Positions 30,536-60,008 of a stretch of DNA of 64,000 bases are shown piece after piece. Both the position numbers and the translations under genes were made by a program. The notes beneath the pieces were generated by a model. It had not been told where the DNA came from. It was given only the letters and a program-made list of their open reading frames with translations, and did not search any database. Positions within the stretch are counted from its first letter, which is position 1. Each line of letters begins with the position of its first letter. The stretch is taken from contig JAYWGN010000054.1 of assembly GCA_043778255.1 (NCBI GenBank), positions 73,613 through 137,612 of the forward strand, in the 5' to 3' direction. The stretch comes from Chitinophagaceae bacterium (GTDB lineage: Bacteria > Bacteroidota > Bacteroidia > Chitinophagales > Chitinophagaceae).

Positions 30536-31042
30536 TAACTCTACCACTCATCACACATACTTTACCTCTGGTGAAAGGTTTGTTACCAGTGGTAGCAATT
30601 TACTTGCTTAGGGCTTACTATTACTAGTATATTTGCACTACTTTAAAGCAATTAGTTACAACTTAAAATAGCCATTGCCTTATTATTACAATGAACAAAT
30701 TATGTGAAGAGGAACTGAAATTCCTATTTTGGATTACGCCACCACGGCAACTTACAGCATTACACACTTAACAATTTAATACTTGCTACGCCTTTGGCAC
30801 TTGCCCCACAATGCTTTGTAGCTTAATGGCTGCCAGATTGTAGTGGAAATCATTTTACTTTTTTTTTGGTTAAAGATTGCTATAAAAAAAGCAACAAAAA
30901 AAAGTAAAATATTGAAACGAAAAGCTGGAACTAAAGGTGCAAAATGGTATAATGCTAACAGCCCCCAATTGTATTAAAAAAAAATTACCTTTCGTGTAAT
31001 TTTAAAATATATACTTAACAATAAAAACAAACAACAAACACA

Positions 31043-38736: not shown

Positions 38737-39642
38737 TTGTGTATGGCTATACCTAATACTTATTATAATGAGTTTGTAATGTACCTTACTACCGAAAGGC
38801 GGTACAGCCACCATACTATAAGAGCTTATAGCGACGATATAACTCAGTTTTTCGACTTTATGGAACTTACTTATGGTATGCTACCAATAACGGAAATAAA
38901 GGCTAGTTTAATACGTAGCTGGCTAAGTACACTAAAGGAACAGCAAAATACTGCCAAAACTATAAACAGAAAAATATCGACCTTAAAAACATACTTTAAG
39001 TACTTACAAATTAAGCAAATAATAGTAACCTCACCGTTGCAACATATTATAAGCCCCAAAATTAGTAAGCGGTTACCCCAATTTGTGGCCGAAGCTGATA
39101 TAAAAACATTACTGCAAGAGGTGGAATTTGCCCCTGAATTTGAAGGGCAATTACACCGAGTAATACTCTACATTTTTTATTATACAGGTATGCGGCTAAG
39201 CGAATTGCAACAACTACAACTTACCAATATTGACTTGCAGAGCAATACCCTTAAAGTATTGGGCAAAGGCAATAAAGAACGACTGTTGCCTATACAACAA
39301 GCATTGCAAAATGCCCTTACAAATTATACCCTACAACGAGCCACACTGCCAATTATAATTGATACAAACTATTTGTTACTTACCATAAATGGTAAAAAAT
39401 TGTATGCCAAATATATATACAATGTGGTAACCCAATACCTAAGCAAAGTAACTACTATAAGTAAAAAAAGCCCACATATACTACGCCATACATTTGCCAC
39501 ACACCTTACAAGTAATGGAGCCGAACTTAATGCAGTAAAGGAGTTGCTAGGGCATAGCAGCCTTGCCGCTACACAAATATATACACATAACAATATTGAA
39601 AGGCTTAAAAACATTCATAAAAAAGCCCACCCCAAAGCATAG
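38737..39642 (+). CDS. xerC: Tyrosine site-specific recombinase XerC/XerD-like
   Basis: 301 aa; catalytic region RHTFATHL...GHSSLAATQIYTH (R..H-x-x-R...Y); the rpsU-xerC linkage is a conserved Bacteroidetes arrangement. Confidence 0.8.
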   Translation: MCMAIPNTYYNEFVMYLTTERRYSHHTIRAYSDDITQFFDFMELTYGMLPITEIKASLIRSWLSTLKEQQNTAKTINRKISTLKTYFKYLQIKQIIVTSPLQHIISPKISKRLPQFVAEADIKTLLQEVEFAPEFEGQLHRVILYIFYYTGMRLSELQQLQLTNIDLQSNTLKVLGKGNKERLLPIQQALQNALTNYTLQRATLPIIIDTNYLLLTINGKKLYAKYIYNVVTQYLSKVTTISKKSPHILRHTFATHLTSNGAELNAVKELLGHSSLAATQIYTHNNIERLKNIHKKAHPKA

Positions 39643-53784: not shown

Positions 53785-55713
53785 ATGTCAACCAAACAGC
53801 CAACCAACTATGGGGCTTTAAGTACTCTTGTAACCGTATTCTTTTTTTGGGGATTTATAGCAGCAGGTAACAGTGTGTTTATCCCTTTTTGCAAACACAA
53901 ATTTGATTTAGATCAGTTTCAAAGTCAGCTAGTTGATACTGCCTTTTATTTTGCTTATTTTATTGGTGCATTAGTATTGTTTGCTGTAGGTGCATCCAAA
54001 GGTAACGACCCAGTTGCAAAGTGGGGTTTTAAAAAGAGTATAGTGTACGGTTTGTTATTTTCGGCATTTGGTGCTGCCATTATGATAATAGCTGTAAACC
54101 TTGGTACTTTTCCGGGTATGTTAGCAGGTCTATTTGTAGTAGCATTGGGGTTTAGTTTGCAACAAACAGCTGCACAGCCTTTTTCCATAGCTTTAGGCGA
54201 CCCTAGTACAGGCACAAGCCGAGTTACATTGGGCGGTGCTATTAACTCATTTGGTACTACCATTGGGCCGTTAGTTGTAGGTATTGCTTTATTTGGTACT
54301 ACTGCTGCCATTACCGACGAAAAAATTGCTACCCTTAGCCTTAGTAAAGTAATATTATTATACAGTTGTGTTGGTGCATTATTTATTGGTGCAGCTATTA
54401 TGTTTTACAGCAGCAAAAAAGTACCAAGTGGTATAAGTAACGAAAAAACAGAACCTGCCAACAAAGCATTATACACCTTGTTAATGATGACAGGGTTACT
54501 AGCTATAATGTTTGTTCCGGTATTTAAAAGTTATACATCAACTGAGGCAAACAAAATGGATAGGTTAGAAAAATTAAACGGAGCTATATCAAAAAATATT
54601 GATTCGGTACTCAAAGTAACCTTACAACCACAAGGAAAAGATACTGCATTTGTAAAAGGTTTTTTAAAAGATAAAAAAGAAACCGTAATAGTAGCACAAC
54701 TAGACTCTTTAAACAAAGCTTATGCCTCTAATGCTACAGCAGTAGCTAACCTTGGTAGCATAACATCAAATAGAGCCACAATTACCTCAACAGAAAAAGA
54801 AATACAAACATTAAAATATCCACTTGAAAGTTATAGATTAAAATGGTTGTTAGGAGCATTTGGTATAGTGGTATTGGGTTTGGTATTTGCTAATAGGGCA
54901 GCACAAAAGGTAGAAACAGGGTGGGGCGCCATGAAATATCCACAGTTAGTATTGGGCATGTTAGGCATATTCTTTTATGTAGGTGTAGAGGTTACAGTAG
55001 GCAGCAACCTTACCGAATTATTAAAGCACGAAGGCTTTGGGCAACTCACCTCATCACAAGCCACACCTTATGTAGCTATGTATTGGGGTAGCTTAATGAT
55101 AGGGCGTTGGGCAGGTGCCGTAGGTGCATTTGGCTTTAGCAAACAAAAGCGAATTATACTACAATTAATAGTGCCATTTATTGCCTTTGCCATATTAATA
55201 GCGGTTAACAGTGCATTTGGGTACGATATGCAAAAACTATACTGGTATGTAGCTTGTGTAGTAATTCAAATAGGTGCATTTTTTGTGAGTAACGAAAAGC
55301 CAGCAAGAACATTACTCATATTTTCGTTGCTAGGCGTAGCTGCTATGGTAGTGGGTACCTTAACTACCGGTACAGTAGCCATTTATGCATTTTTAAGTGG
55401 TGGTTTATTTTGCTCTATTATGTGGCCATGTATATTTAGTTTATCAGTAGCTGGCTTAGGCAAATACACAACACAAGGTTCGGCTTTTTTAATAATGATG
55501 ATATTAGGTGGCGGCATTATACCTCCTATACAAGGCAAGGTGGCGGATTACTTACAAGCAAGTTCCACAGTTGATGGCTACGGCATACATGCCTCTTATT
55601 GGATTGCCGCTGCTTGTTACGCCTACTTAGCCTTTTTTGCTTACATAGTAAAAGGAATATTAAGTAAGCAAGGCGTTAATTATGACGTAAGCAGCGATGC
55701 AGCAGGACACTAA
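53785..55713 (+). CDS. MFS transporter of the FucP / glucose-galactose permease type with a ~110-aa hydrophilic central insertion
   Basis: 642 aa; 12 TM helices in two 6-TM halves separated by a soluble segment (~aa 250-360); followed by a ROK kinase. Confidence 0.65.
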   Translation: MSTKQPTNYGALSTLVTVFFFWGFIAAGNSVFIPFCKHKFDLDQFQSQLVDTAFYFAYFIGALVLFAVGASKGNDPVAKWGFKKSIVYGLLFSAFGAAIMIIAVNLGTFPGMLAGLFVVALGFSLQQTAAQPFSIALGDPSTGTSRVTLGGAINSFGTTIGPLVVGIALFGTTAAITDEKIATLSLSKVILLYSCVGALFIGAAIMFYSSKKVPSGISNEKTEPANKALYTLLMMTGLLAIMFVPVFKSYTSTEANKMDRLEKLNGAISKNIDSVLKVTLQPQGKDTAFVKGFLKDKKETVIVAQLDSLNKAYASNATAVANLGSITSNRATITSTEKEIQTLKYPLESYRLKWLLGAFGIVVLGLVFANRAAQKVETGWGAMKYPQLVLGMLGIFFYVGVEVTVGSNLTELLKHEGFGQLTSSQATPYVAMYWGSLMIGRWAGAVGAFGFSKQKRIILQLIVPFIAFAILIAVNSAFGYDMQKLYWYVACVVIQIGAFFVSNEKPARTLLIFSLLGVAAMVVGTLTTGTVAIYAFLSGGLFCSIMWPCIFSLSVAGLGKYTTQGSAFLIMMILGGGIIPPIQGKVADYLQASSTVDGYGIHASYWIAAACYAYLAFFAYIVKGILSKQGVNYDVSSDAAGH

Positions 55714-55772
55714 ATAATAATTTTTAATGTTCAATTAATATTTGTCAATTATTAGTTGTTAAATATAGCCGT

Positions 55773-56741
55773 ATGAAACAAAAATTAGCAATAGGAATAG
55801 ATATTGGTGGCACTACCACCAAATTTGGGGTGGTTGATACTAATGGTGCTATATTGGTACAGGATAGAATACCCACCAACATACACGAAGAAGTAGGTGA
55901 ATTTATAGAAGACCTATACCCTAAATTAATGCCCTTAATTACTGCTTATGGCGGCGTTACCAAATTTGTAGGTATTGGTATAGGTGCACCTAATGGCAAT
56001 TACTATAAAGGTACTATTGAGTATGCTCCAAACCTAAAGTGGAAGGGCATTATACCTATTGCAGAGTTAATACAAAAACGATTTGAGCTTACTACCAAAC
56101 TTACTAACGATGCCAATGCAGCCGCCGTTGGCGAAATGATGTATGGTGCAGCCAAAGGTATGCAGGATTTTATAACCATAACCTTAGGCACAGGTGTAGG
56201 TAGCGGTATAGTTACCAATGGCAAAGTTATATATGGACACGATGGCTTTGCTGGCGAACTTGGGCATACTATTATAAGGCCAGGTGGCCGTATGCACAAA
56301 GGTACTGGTATGCGAGGCAGCTTAGAGGCTTATGCAAGTGCCACAGGTGTACGAGAAACCGCCATAGAATTACTAACCGATTACCCCGAAAAGGAAAGCC
56401 TACTCCGCAACTACACCATTAACGACCTTACCAGTGAAAGTGTGTATGAGTGTGCCATGCAAGGCGATAATATAGCCAACGAAATATTTGAATACACAGG
56501 GCAAATATTGGGCGAATCGTTAGCCAACTTTATAATGTTTAGCAGCCCCGAGGCAATTGTATTATTTGGCGGACTTACCAAGGCTGGCGACTTGCTACTT
56601 AACCCAACACGGAAGCACATGGAGCTAAATTTGTTACCCATATTTCAAAATAAAATAAAGCTACTGTACAGCCAATTGCAAGAAGCCGATGCAGCTATAC
56701 TAGGAGCAAGTGCATTGGTATGGAAACATAGCTCGTTGTAG
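55773..56741 (+). CDS. ROK-family sugar kinase (glucokinase / N-acetylglucosamine kinase-like)
   Basis: 322 aa; N-terminal IGIDIGGTTTKFGVVD ATP-binding motif; ROK family signature. Confidence 0.8.
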   Translation: MKQKLAIGIDIGGTTTKFGVVDTNGAILVQDRIPTNIHEEVGEFIEDLYPKLMPLITAYGGVTKFVGIGIGAPNGNYYKGTIEYAPNLKWKGIIPIAELIQKRFELTTKLTNDANAAAVGEMMYGAAKGMQDFITITLGTGVGSGIVTNGKVIYGHDGFAGELGHTIIRPGGRMHKGTGMRGSLEAYASATGVRETAIELLTDYPEKESLLRNYTINDLTSESVYECAMQGDNIANEIFEYTGQILGESLANFIMFSSPEAIVLFGGLTKAGDLLLNPTRKHMELNLLPIFQNKIKLLYSQLQEADAAILGASALVWKHSSL

Positions 56742-57175
56742 TACTTGAGAGTAAACTTATATTTAAAATACTCCAACTTCAAATTTATAAGTGCCCTGAT
56801 TAGTGGAGTAAGAACACACTTGCCTCACTTGTATTAGTTATATAAAAATCTATTAAGTTTTAATTATTAATATTGTCCCGAGTATTCGGGATTATTAATT
56901 ATTCACTATTAATTATTAATTATTTTGGGGCTATAAGCAGCAAACCTTTATGCAGCTTATGTTCACCGCCCATTACATAAACCTACAGCCTTCGGCTTAG
57001 TAGGTGTTATTCCATTAAGCGGTGCAGCCAGTGGGCAGTATAATTTCAATTAAGCTTTTTGGTTTCAGTAATATTTAGTTTGTTACTATAAAACAAATTA
57101 TACGAAATTTCCAGCCTCGCCATTGTTGGAATGTCGAAGCCTTCCAACAACAATAAAACAAGTTTCAATTAGATA

Positions 57176-57242
57176 TTCCGTCTCGGTAGGGTCTTGTGGT
57201 TTACCGGATTTGGCGGTACAGGCTTCGCCCAAGACCCTACCG
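57176..57242. repeat. R1 repeat element copy A (31 bp, ttccgtctcggtagggtcttgtggtttaccg) embedded in a nested hairpin
   Basis: Outer 13-bp perfect inverted repeat cggtagggtcttg / caagaccctaccg, with an inner TACCG/CGGTA stem. A second copy of the 31-mer (3 mismatches) lies at 58403-58433, with a partial third copy at 58388-58404. Confidence 0.75.
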
Positions 57243-57373
57243 TAAAGTTAACTTTGCTTATTTTAATTGAATAAAATTAGTAATTTTAATTATAAAAAGA
57301 TTTAAGTGATAAACGTTAGGGTCTCGGCAAGAACCGAAGAACCAACGGAACAAAAGTAATTTTTAAGAAGTGG

Positions 57374-57404
57374 GCAGAGCCCAGCACTAGAGTTACTTTT
57401 TTCA
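57374..57404. repeat. R2 repeat element copy A (gcagagcccagcactagagttacttttttca); second copy at 59193-59223
   Basis: 31-bp near-identical sequences (3 mismatches) flanking the TA/XRE/ORF6N gene block. Confidence 0.75.
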
Positions 57405-57442
57405 TAGACCAGCGGCAGTAGAATCTTTTTTTATGTGTAAGG

Positions 57443-57700
57443 TTAGTAATGATTTTGGCAGGCAATTATTTTAATGTAAGCATCTGCAACACGATATACT
57501 AGTCGATGTTCGTCATTTATGCGTCTGCTCCAATAACCTTTAAGGTCGTGTTTTAGAGCTTCGGGTTTGCCAATGCCATCAAACGGAGTACGAGCCGTTT
57601 CAATAATTAATTTTTGTAATCGTTGGTATAGTTTTTTATCAATAACAAGCCATTGGTTATACTGTTCAAAAGCGATAGGCGTAAATTGTATATCCAGCAT
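57443..57700 (-). CDS. yoeB: YoeB/Txe-family toxin (mRNA interferase)
   Basis: 85 aa; ...ARTPFDGIGKPEALKHDLKGYWSRRINDEHRLVYRV...IIACQNHY matches YoeB almost position by position. Confidence 0.85.
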   Translation of the reverse strand: MLDIQFTPIAFEQYNQWLVIDKKLYQRLQKLIIETARTPFDGIGKPEALKHDLKGYWSRRINDEHRLVYRVADAYIKIIACQNHY

Positions 57701-57921
57701 TATTCGGTAATATTAGCAGTAATAGACTTTCCATTTTTATCTTGCTCTATAGATTGTAAAAGCATTGCTTTATTAGCAGGATTAGCCATTAAAAAAGCCG
57801 TTTCATCGTCTTCCACTTCAATGGTAAGTTTAATTGGTTTAGATTTAAAAGCGGCTTTAATTGCATCAATAACATCAGTGTTTATTTCTTGCGCCGAAGC
57901 TAAATGATAAGTAGTGTACAT
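57700..57921 (-). CDS. yefM: YefM/Phd-family antitoxin
   Basis: 73-aa acidic protein immediately upstream of yoeB, stop overlapping the toxin start by 1 nt. Confidence 0.75.
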   Translation of the reverse strand: MYTTYHLASAQEINTDVIDAIKAAFKSKPIKLTIEVEDDETAFLMANPANKAMLLQSIEQDKNGKSITANITE

Positions 57922-57933
57922 AATATAAATTTT

Positions 57934-58269
57934 TTAATGATCGTATGCTTGTTTTGTTTTATGGTCTGTAACAATAGTATCCAAAAAGTTGTCAACTGCT
58001 TTTTTAGTATCTCCTGAAAGTTGTTGAAAAACTTCAAATTTTTTCAATAATTCTTTGTCTTTAATTTCTATATTATTATCGTTTAATAAATAGTTGGAAG
58101 AAACCCCAAGTGCATCCGCAATTAATTTAAACGCATCGGCTGGCGGCATAGAAGAACCCAGTTTGTATCGAGACAAAATTTTTAAATTAACCGTAGATTT
58201 TTCTGCAAGGTTTTTTTGCGATAATTCCTTTCTTTGCCTAGTCAATCTAATTTTTTCTGCAATAGTCAT
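57934..58269 (-). CDS. XRE-family helix-turn-helix transcriptional regulator
   Basis: 111 aa; HTH LSQKNLAEKSTVNLKILSRYKLG; heads the minus-strand three-gene block. Confidence 0.8.
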   Translation of the reverse strand: MTIAEKIRLTRQRKELSQKNLAEKSTVNLKILSRYKLGSSMPPADAFKLIADALGVSSNYLLNDNNIEIKDKELLKKFEVFQQLSGDTKKAVDNFLDTIVTDHKTKQAYDH

Positions 58270-58402
58270 AATATGGAATTTTAGGTGTTATTTATCCAAC
58301 AACTGCGACTAATAAGACAAAGTTAAGAAGATATGCATAATTAATTCTCAAAAATAGGAGTAATTAACACCCAAATATTACACTTTTCGTCTCAGTGGGG
58401 TT

Positions 58403-58433
58403 TTCCGTCTCAGTGGGGTCTTGTGATTTACCG
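58403..58433. repeat. R1 repeat element copy B (ttccgtctcagtggggtcttgtgatttaccg) plus an adjacent partial copy at 58388-58404
   Basis: See copy A; here only the left arm is present, and duplicated. Confidence 0.7.
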
Positions 58434-58585
58434 CATTATGCAGTAACCCGAAGATTCCAAAGAACCAGAAAATTTTAAAAGAAGACTTTAAAAACTATTA
58501 TCCATTTTAAGTTTTATCTTCATAAGATTAAAACAATTGAAATGGCTAAAAAGAATTACCTGTATTAATAGTATAGCAAAGAATA

Positions 58586-59098
58586 TTGAATAAAATATTT
58601 ATCTTACATGGTGATAAAGTAATATTTGATAGAGATTTAGCAGAAATGTATGGAGTTTCTACTAAAGTTTTTAATCAAGCTGTTAAAAGAAATATAGAAC
58701 GATTTCCTAAAGACTTTATGTTTACAGTAAGTGAAAAAGAATGGGACAACTTGAGGTCACAAATTGTGACCTCAAGTTGGGGTGGTGCAAGATATCGTCC
58801 AAATGTGTTTACTGAACAAGGCGTAGCTATGTTATCCAGCATTTTAAATAGTGCTATTGCAATTCAAGTAAATATAAGTATTATACGAGTGGTTACCAAA
58901 ATGCGGGAATATGCCTCAACGCATAAAGATATTTTAATAAAACTTGCCAAACTTGAAAAAGAGGTAAGTAATAATAGCAATAATTCACAAAAGAACAGCC
59001 AAGACATTGAAAGTATATTTATGGTATTAAAAGAGCTATTAGAAAAAGGCAGTAAACCAGTAGCAAGAAATAAAATTGGGTTTAAACTTTACGATTAA
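58586..59098 (+). CDS. ORF6N-domain (KilA-N-like) protein
   Basis: 170 aa (TTG start in the ORF track). N-terminal ...DRDLAEMYGVSTKVFNQAVKRNIERFPKDFMF...VTSSWGGARYRPNVFTEQGVAMLSSIL is typical of ORF6N proteins found in Bacteroidetes mobile elements and phages. Confidence 0.7.
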   Translation: MNKIFILHGDKVIFDRDLAEMYGVSTKVFNQAVKRNIERFPKDFMFTVSEKEWDNLRSQIVTSSWGGARYRPNVFTEQGVAMLSSILNSAIAIQVNISIIRVVTKMREYASTHKDILIKLAKLEKEVSNNSNNSQKNSQDIESIFMVLKELLEKGSKPVARNKIGFKLYD

Positions 59099-59192
59099 TT
59101 CAATTTAAAAATCGGTAACAATTAGTCCATAATAGTGCTTACTTTCAAATACTGTATAAGTAGTACAGTCAAGTACAATTTTTACAAACTAA

Positions 59193-59223
59193 GCAGAGCC
59201 CAGCAGGAGTGTTACTTTTTTCA
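59193..59223. repeat. R2 repeat element copy B (gcagagcccagcaggagtgttacttttttca)
   Basis: See copy A at 57374-57404. Confidence 0.7.
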
Positions 59224-59307
59224 AAAGCTAAAAAAAATGGGTTTAAGTAAAACAATTTGATTTAAAACTTCAAGAATGTACTTTCACTTTTTTAAAAACT
59301 AACTAAC

Positions 59308-59793
59308 ATGAAATTTTTATTATTTTTATTTACGACCATTTTATTAAGTTGTGCTAACAATACTGACGGTTTAATTGGCTCAGTTAATGATAAAAGTAAA
59401 GCAATTAAAGATGGCTTTTACGTTTGTGATTATGTACCAAGCAAAAAAGTCTTTAAATTGCTTGATGGAAATATTTTAGTAATTGACACGGCTTGGGCTG
59501 AATGTAATTTTTACTTAAAGAGTGGTAAAAAAATTATAAATGCCAATTTGGGGTATGTAATAAATATTCCATACAACACGTCTATTAAAAATAAATATGC
59601 TATTGACTTTGTGTTAGCTAATAAAAATAATCAAATGTTTTCTCATCCATTTGGTACTTATTTTATTGGCTTATGCCCCAAGAAGTTAGATAAATACATT
59701 GCAGTTATTTTAGTTGAAAGAAATCCAGACTCTACTTTAGGATGGAAAGAACCCATAACAACTGATACATTTTATCTTAAAAAAATGAATTAG
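59308..59793 (+). CDS. Hypothetical lipoprotein
   Basis: 161 aa; lipoprotein signal MKFLLFLFTTILLSC. Confidence 0.5.
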   Translation: MKFLLFLFTTILLSCANNTDGLIGSVNDKSKAIKDGFYVCDYVPSKKVFKLLDGNILVIDTAWAECNFYLKSGKKIINANLGYVINIPYNTSIKNKYAIDFVLANKNNQMFSHPFGTYFIGLCPKKLDKYIAVILVERNPDSTLGWKEPITTDTFYLKKMN

Positions 59794-60008
59794 TAAATAA
59801 GGTTTAACTTTTTTATTTCAAAATATCTATTTTAATACCGTATGGACAGTATTGGCGATAGTAATTTTGGTAGTATTTGGACGACCCTAGCCCCAGTGTT
59901 ATTTTTTATTATTCACCAATAGCAAATAGGCTAAAAAATAATACACTGTATTTTTTTGTAAAAAATGTGTTAGCTTTTATAACTATTTTTGCAGCTTATA
60001 ATACTACT

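Follow-up and report, generated by a model that had tools for sequence, protein, structure and literature searches.

A split non-coding unit brackets and holds accessory modules in a strain-variable islet of a Chitinophagaceae bacterium

Small accessory modules are known to gather at particular sites in bacterial genomes by several routes. Integrative elements that depend on tyrosine recombinases are bracketed by direct repeats, attL and attR, and the usual type of landmark for integrative elements is a structured RNA gene. In integrons, short cassettes are separated by attC sites, imperfect palindromes of ~60-130 nt, and integron attC arrays known as CALINs often carry toxin-antitoxin (TA) cassettes. 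Small modules, including TA modules, are also exchanged, at a fixed site between conserved genes or flanked by short conserved sites, in the minimal mobile elements of Neisseria and in the pdif (Xer-site) modules of Acinetobacter plasmids. To our knowledge, integrons are rare in the environmental Bacteroidota lineage, and the mobility of mini-modules is poorly understood. The locus considered here lies in 64,000 nt of DNA from a Chitinophagaceae bacterium (GCA_043778255.1, contig JAYWGN010000054.1, positions 73,613 to 137,612), the whole of which is called the window. The window belongs to a metagenome scaffold (ENA ERZ28574377, scaffold_34), and ROK kinase homologues at 78-88% identity place its source near Ferruginibacter. 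Here, in a strain-specific islet of ~2.7 kb, two direct repeats of a non-coding unit of ~130 nt, termed U, bracket a TA module and are each interrupted by a further insertion, one of which carries an ORF6N gene. Among known systems, the arrangement appears closest to the attL/attR repeats of integration hot spots, and would then represent a direct-repeat-bracketed accessory islet and not a new class of element.

A sequence-only reading of the region had described two families of 31-bp repeats, R1 and R2, interleaved with gene cassettes. The repeats themselves are sound. R1 occurs at 57176-57206 and 58403-58433 (R1') and R2 at 57374-57404 and 59193-59223 (R2'), with 28/31 positions identical in each pair (three differences in R1). 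As a degenerate 31-mer, R1 is found at exactly these two sites in 64 kb and at none in 100 shuffles, R2 likewise at two sites and none in shuffles; in a repeat search the similarity runs on to 57 nt at 77% identity for R1 and to 47 nt at 83% identity for R2. The partial duplicate of R1 is an exact 14-mer, CGTCTCAGTGGGGT, present at 58388-58401 and 58406-58419 with a period of 18 nt. The proposed order, R1-R2-[xre/antitoxin/yoeB, minus strand]-R1'-[ORF6N]-R2'-[lipoprotein-like open reading frame (ORF)], was also recovered, as was a perfect 13-bp inverted repeat at the first R1 (57184-57196/57230-57242, with 33 nt between the arms) that encloses a 5-bp stem, TACCG/CGGTA. This hairpin is, as had been claimed, richer in G+C than its surroundings (0.56 over 57176-57245 vs 0.37 and 0.22 in the flanks and 0.31 in the islet), and folded as RNA it reaches -35.4 kcal/mol (z = -3.96; 0/200 shuffles as good). 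R1, R2, the tandem 14-mer and the 13-bp inverted repeat are far beyond chance.

What did not survive is the division into two families, R1 and R2 being the head and the tail of one and the same non-coding unit. The key to this is a joint: in the first copy of U (copy A) the sequence before R2, 57331-57370, matches the sequence after R1' in the second copy (copy B), 58446-58484, and in a fixed-position global test only 2/3000 dinucleotide shuffles score as well. The joint homology links R1 to R2, and there is therefore a single unit, each copy of which carries a different insertion in a different place. Without 57219-57330 and 58485-59189, copy A (131 nt) can be aligned with copy B (130 nt) over the full length, with 99/131 identical positions (~76%) and one gap of 1 nt. 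A profile built on the composite unit detects exactly four pieces in the window: A-left, 57162-57244 (profile positions 1-77, E = 2e-16); A-right, 57330-57404 (57-131, E = 2e-21); B-left, 58389-58484 (1-97, E = 5e-28); and B-right, 59170-59223 (78-131, E = 1e-9). As it stands, the work mainly corrects the anatomy of the locus, from two families to one split unit, and sets exact borders for its modules. A third R2-like copy was considered at 59864-59910 and, at 62% identity and nhmmer E = 0.2-0.35, is taken as chance.

U starts with a 13-bp motif of the GGGTCT type, present once or twice, followed by a small inner hairpin; its middle consists of a sequence imperfectly complementary to the motif, by which a 9-bp stem is closed, and an A-rich stretch that includes a 13-mer, AATTTTTAAGAAG; and it ends in the conserved tail GCAGAGCCCAGCA..AG.GTTACTTTTTTCA. 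Terminal inverted repeats are absent from U. On the plus strand, the left part of copy A (57162-57218) holds R1 with the motif, CGGTAGGGTCTTG, at 57184-57196, and the right part (57331-57404) the joint, the AT-rich 13-mer at 57358-57370 and R2. The left part of copy B (58389-58484, plus strand) comprises the tandem 14-mers, R1', the hairpin, the joint and AATTTTAAAAGAAG at 58471-58484, and the right part (59190-59223, plus strand) holds R2'. Both copies retain the hairpin stem of U, that is, 9/9 outer pairs (UAGGGUCUU/AAGACCCUA in copy A, UGGGGUCUU/AAGAUUCCA in copy B) and 4/5 pairs of the inner stem. Changes in the outer stem comprise one compensatory exchange (A-U to G-C) and two of G-C to G-U, and all four stem substitutions keep pairing on the plus strand.

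The two interruptions differ in kind as well as in place. The insertion in copy A, ins_A (57219-57330, no strand assigned), is 112 nt long and has no counterpart in copy B when the two copies are aligned over their length. Its centre is AT-rich, and its ends, CCAAGACCCTACCGT and ACGTTAGGGTCTCGG, are inverted repeats that match at 13/15 positions, a value reached by 4/2000 shuffles; these ends repeat U's own GGGTCT motif, and the sequences on either side of the insertion form a weak duplication of ~20 nt of U (unit positions ~57-77; 31/3000 shuffles). Because the right arm of the perfect 13-bp hairpin (57230-57242) is supplied by the left end of this insertion, which copy B lacks, the perfection of that inverted repeat is partly a product of insertion. 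The insertion in copy B, ins_B (58485-59189, plus strand), is a 705-nt block that contains the ORF6N gene (Pfam ORF6N) and is absent from copy A. The AT-rich 13-mer is single in copy A and has look-alikes at both ends of ins_B, namely AATTTTAAAAGAAG (12/14) and, as the end of the block, AATTTTTACAAAC at 59177-59189 (10/13; extension 11/16, P ~ 0.001). Both insertions fall within the ~260 nt of U and not in other parts of the islet. The layout can be written as U::ins_A - [xre-antitoxin-yoeB] - U::ORF6N - lipoprotein-like ORF. Since the insertions occupy different positions in U, the inner segments of the two copies are unrelated: the inner 139 nt of copy A have no homology to the 137 nt of copy B that lie outside the ORF6N module. 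Two further ideas about these junctions were dropped. Copy A is not a decayed ORF6N or xre cassette, no remnants being found by tblastn or DNA alignment, and an AT-rich "core" pattern, AATTT[CT][AT]A...AAG, which occurs at junctions (57042, 57358, 58471) and seven times on the plus strand of the whole window, was designed post hoc and carries no evidential weight.

The TA module (57405-58388, minus strand, promoter region included) lies between the two copies of U. It consists of yoeB (57443-57700; Pfam YoeB_toxin), a gene for a putative antitoxin of 73 amino acids (57700-57921), which has no Pfam match and is labelled by position only, and an xre-type helix-turn-helix gene (57934-58269; Pfam HTH_19/HTH_3), all on the minus strand. 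A related xre-antitoxin-yoeB module is present on short contigs in the ENA (L175-L178), with 86% amino acid identity in Xre. The DNA of these contigs is 86% identical to the window over 57605-58387 and unrelated beyond, and the break at 58387|58388 coincides with the start of the tandem 14-mer with which copy B begins. The end of the TA module on the xre side, set independently by this relative, thus falls at R1', and with the ORF6N gene inside the second copy this gives substance to the earlier suggestion that the repeats mark cassette boundaries. Direct repeats bracket the module exactly: the last base of copy A is 57404, at a distance of 38 nt from the yoeB stop codon, copy B starts at 58389, and homology to L175 ends at 58387. 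For the yoeB-side border the comparison with L175 is uninformative, the 3' half of yoeB being replaced there. In the L175-L178 group yoeB is cut after about codon 32 and followed by unrelated sequence, and the module adjoins a gene for a TonB-dependent receptor, a context different from that in the window; one of these contigs comes from the window's own sample. DNA homology between the ORF6N gene and its nearest loci (75-77% amino acid identity) is likewise confined to 58505/58514-59098. On comparison with such relatives, the TA and ORF6N modules are shown to be independent of U. The ORF that follows R2', which lies 85 nt upstream of it, encodes 161 amino acids with a lipoprotein-like N-terminus and has no Pfam match.

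The left border of the islet is set by a contig from a related strain (L184), in which the ROK protein is 99% identical and the DNA 94.5% identical over 55322-57050. Beyond 57050 this contig continues in unrelated AT-rich DNA without U and ends 390 nt later, a comparison by which the islet is shown to be strain-variable. The head of the islet (57051-57161, no strand assigned) runs from this border, 57050|57051, to copy A, and has a predicted hairpin at 57123-57151. More distant relatives, whose ROK homologues are 88% and 81% identical, carry other genes after ROK and are uninformative as to synteny. Between the ROK terminator and the border lies a conserved, unannotated structured element of ~120 nt (56925-57045, plus strand), which is rich in G+C. 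It is kept in L184, where 5/5 substitutions spare the predicted pairs, of which 36/36 are retained, and lie at unpaired positions; a UUCG tetraloop becomes UACG, and four G-U pairs point to the plus strand. Rfam gave no match to the element at E <= 10, nor did a homologue turn up in the related loci searched, which amount to 1.4 Mb around homologues of ORF6N, IspH, ROK and Xre (80 ORF6N and 80 IspH loci making up 1.3 Mb). It is a candidate small RNA or ROK 3' element, and by analogy with structured RNA genes it is possibly an integration landmark. Direct repeats flanking the whole islet were sought as well, and the best pair, 56947-56960/59986-59999 (13/14), is not significant (116/500 shuffles).

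It is proposed, tentatively and by analogy, that U serves as the att-like target or bracket sequence of a hot spot for the integration of small cassettes; the structure of the unit is solid, and the function assigned to it is given somewhat less than an even chance. Several features resemble attL/attR repeats at hot spots beside small-RNA genes: an accessory module lies between direct repeats; close strains differ in the islet, which has a conserved structured element immediately before its start; an AT-rich core is seen on both sides of a second module, which sits at it; and relatives of the ORF6N gene are adjacent to integrases. On this proposal, the TA module would have entered by recombination at U, whether Campbell-type, site-specific or assisted by homology, and its entry would have left one copy of U on each side as attL/attR-like direct repeats. 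U would then have been struck again, by the ORF6N block at the AT-rich 13-mer of copy B, and in copy A by the hairpin-ended 112-bp piece, ins_A. The recombinase would act in trans or have been lost, because ORF6N genes related to that of the islet directly adjoin tyrosine integrases elsewhere, lying immediately downstream of them in four loci (L035, L051, L055, L181). If U is truly of the attachment type, the locus would provide a compact example of TA and ORF6N single-gene modules stacked at one chromosomal hot spot in environmental Bacteroidota.

A number of observations weigh against this proposal, and in several of them the locus departs from known attL/attR systems. No integrase or transposase was found in or adjoining the islet among called genes within +/-10 kb analysed with Pfam, the islet itself encoding only YoeB, the antitoxin, Xre, ORF6N and the lipoprotein-like ORF, and the only tyrosine recombinase of the window (38737-39642) is XerC/XerD-like and 17.5 kb away. 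Unlike attL and attR, the repeats have a length of 130 nt, which is long, and share no more than ~76% identity, which makes recent homologous exchange between them unlikely. No other genome or locus with U was recovered, hence no empty, alternatively filled or second occupied site is known, and exchange between strains is seen in one relative only, as different DNA at the same border. The structured element at the border is not a tRNA or tmRNA, and no gene of either type was found. The putative core 13-mer is a low-complexity motif, and because the two look-alikes that flank the ORF6N block are not significantly similar to each other in direct comparison (421/3000 shuffles), a duplication of target or core around ins_B is suggestive only. 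Covariation between just two copies is uninformative on structure or function (shuffle control 241/500). The TA module of L175 has no U on its xre side. Finally, that the homology of U ends at the TA module is partly automatic, any foreign DNA being bound to end it.

The alternative that best withstands the evidence invokes no recombination site at all. A plain local tandem duplication, by slippage or unequal crossing-over, would have produced two copies of a functionless U that later received unrelated, illegitimate insertions. Such a history accords with there being only two copies, both at one locus and ~24% diverged, with no recombinase nearby, and it needs no special account of homology that ends at inserted DNA in any case. 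It does require three separate insertions to have landed in, or exactly between, two 130-nt copies, it leaves the TA module at the junction to the nucleotide, and it gives no reason for hairpin substitutions that all preserve pairing. Local duplication is thus regarded as rather unlikely, while still a serious contender.

Further down stands the possibility, clearly unlikely, that U is a cis-regulatory or small-RNA element duplicated together with expression cassettes, R1 acting as a cluster of protein-binding sites or as a plus-strand RNA hairpin and R2 as a promoter-like or 3' element. The maintained stem speaks for it, the compensatory change and the two G-U changes working on the plus strand only, as does the recurrence of GGGTCT, direct and inverted, four of whose 12 occurrences in the 64-kb window fall within 1.3 kb; this recurrence fits protein-binding sites at least as well as RNA. 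After the hairpin of copy A comes, at 57249, a -7 box of the Bacteroidetes type, TAACTTTG, which is perfect, and the position of R2' upstream of the lipoprotein-like ORF could also be regulatory. A known structured RNA is not supported, however, as Rfam 15 gave no match over 56700-59400 at E <= 10 except noise far below gathering scores. The fold of the copy B hairpin is no better than that of shuffles (z = -1.5), R2 has no conserved structure (z = -1.65 and +0.75), and the geometry relative to promoters differs between the copies. The TA module moreover has a counterpart without U at another locus (L175), and the palindrome found upstream of ORF6N homologues is a different one. R2 was also considered as an intrinsic terminator and rejected, a terminator scan making no call and the hairpin not being kept in copy B.

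The short, hairpin-forming and non-coding character of U, together with the inverted ends and AT-rich body of ins_A, recalls miniature inverted-repeat transposable elements (MITEs) and palindromic repeats of the REP, BIME, Correia and ERIC types, and U or ins_A might belong to a small non-autonomous family represented elsewhere in the genome. The terminal inverted repeats of ins_A share the U motif and its flanks carry the weak duplication of U described above. U, however, is without inverted ends, and the two copies of U and one of ins_A are all that was found in the sequence searched. Pattern, blastn-short, nhmmer and covariance-model searches recovered no further U, R1, R2 or motif cluster in the 64-kb window or the 1.4 Mb of related loci, where matches were of the chance kind, for example a 16-mer inside the metH gene in L067, and the MITE-like family suggested by the sequence-only reading is not supported. 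Degenerate exact-pattern scans found none in 185,579 species genomes or JGI metagenomes (both R1) or in the viral collection IMG/VR (R1 and R2), all weak negatives, such scans being insensitive at the 12-24% divergence seen between the copies, and in plasmid and phage collections only the coding parts were matched. A mobile repeat family is accordingly very unlikely. Nor do R1 and R2 look like the terminal repeats of an insertion sequence: the repeats are direct, not inverted, and the proteins between them have no transposase domain.

Integron attC arrays offer a superficial parallel, in that one of the short cassettes separated by imperfectly palindromic sites is, as here, a TA cassette. An attC site is an imperfect palindrome, 57-141 nt long, that has a conserved R'' box (RYYYAAC) at one end and a conserved R' box (GTTRRRY) at the other, and no pair of such boxes 50-150 nt apart exists on either strand of 57000-59400. 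An integron integrase (IntI) is also missing, the tyrosine recombinase at 38737-39642 scoring best as XerC/XerD and far below integron-integrase cut-offs. In contrast to integrons, the sites number just two, the cassettes do not share one orientation but face opposite ways, and one is inside a site and not between sites. An integron-type site is thus not supported. As for pdif modules, no dif-like 11-6-11 site was identified in U. A bolder version would make U the recombination site of an undescribed cassette system in Chitinophagaceae, integron-like yet independent of integrons, in which a ~130-bp hairpin-bearing site beside a small structured RNA gene would accept TA, ORF6N and other modules, stacked by a tyrosine recombinase acting in trans, with the AT-rich 13-mer as crossover core and the GGGTCT motifs as recombinase-binding sites. 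Such a system is rated a shade less probable even than a mobile repeat family.

Least probable of all, and quite improbable in its own right, is that the repeats are decayed coding fragments, R2 being the 5' end of a small minus-strand ORF or signal peptide and R1 a further coding piece: 0/9 differences in R2 fall at second codon positions of the minus frame, most are synonymous or conservative, and copy A has a 29-codon ORF on the strand of yoeB, but the pattern is not significant in simulation (R2, P = 0.053, and R1, P = 0.067, in the best of the six frames), the frame stops at codon 12 in copy B, and there is neither protein similarity beyond the DNA repeat nor a paralogue in the window or related loci. 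The ORF in question (57319-57405, minus strand) is hydrophobic, MKKVTLVLGSAHFLKITFVPLVLRFLPRP, begins 38 nt downstream of yoeB and overlaps R2. Translated from the minus strand, R2 itself gives MKKVTLVLGSAHFLKI for copy A and LKKVTLLLGSA*FVKI for copy B, where the reading frame has a TTG start.

Of possible wider interest, along with the unannotated structured element at the islet border, is a conserved palindrome within ORF6N genes. The ORF6N gene of the islet (plus strand; stop 59098) has an ancestral ATG at 58542 and an annotated start at an internal TTG (58586). Its 5' end (58542-58590) is damaged by comparison with homologues that start MAKKELQ.LV.EQKILNKI, the lesions being a 1-nt deletion after ATGGCTAA and a change of GAG to TAG at about codon 12, which leave the Pfam ORF6N domain complete. 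Inside the coding sequence, at 58747-58779, is a perfect 16+1+16 palindrome, CAACTTGAGGTCACAA-T-TTGTGACCTCAAGTTG, which encodes NLRSQIVTSSW. A palindrome stands at this position in 60 homologues, drawn from many phyla (loci L015-L094, L181, L182), and shows strong covariation, with arms such as TCA..GTG, TCG..GCG, AGC..GGC and TTC..GGA. Pairing is kept in 86% of cells vs 74% in shuffles, and 108 cells are changed on both sides vs 32 +/- 4.7 in shuffles (0/500). Amino acids change in such a way that pairing is kept, TTG..CAA in some homologues corresponding to TGG..CCA in others. An operator, a recombination site and an mRNA hairpin are candidate roles for the palindrome, and no mention of it was found in papers that mention ORF6N. 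Any kinship between R1 and this palindrome is unconvincing, the two having in common only GGTC and TTGTGA, as judged by eye.

An extra copy of the palindrome occurs ~150 nt or less upstream of the start of the ORF6N match in ~17/80 loci, and in L181 and L182 (200 nt in L056); the gene in the window has no such upstream copy. The order tyrosine integrase, one or more palindromes, ORF6N is recurrent (L035, L051, L055, L181; also L040 and L182), and in integrase-ORF6N loci the palindrome begins a few bases from the integrase stop codon. As a single gene ORF6N is scattered across many phyla, a distribution that fits a mobile module. In Segetibacter and Ferruginibacter, an ORF6N gene with its upstream palindrome lies inside a split metH (L033, 2721-7221; L041, 2860-7221; probably also L067), alone between the homocysteine-methyltransferase half and the pterin/B12 half. 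One contig in Logan (L014) breaks exactly at the ORF6N palindrome.

Some minor features lie outside the islet. The only terminator-like hairpin after ROK is at 56875-56892 (GTCCCGAGTATTCGGGAT with a T-rich tail), and it is mostly removed by a 20-nt deletion in L184. It is followed at 56891-56925 by a 21-nt AT-rich tandem repeat, CACTATTAATTATTAATTATT, of which the ENA scaffold (L001) has one copy more than the window; two Logan contigs end at 56920. The only Rfam family matched in the window is Flavo-1 RNA (RF01705), at 30816-30935 on the plus strand, which scores 50.5 bits, above the gathering score, and has a 25-nt insertion in its terminal loop.

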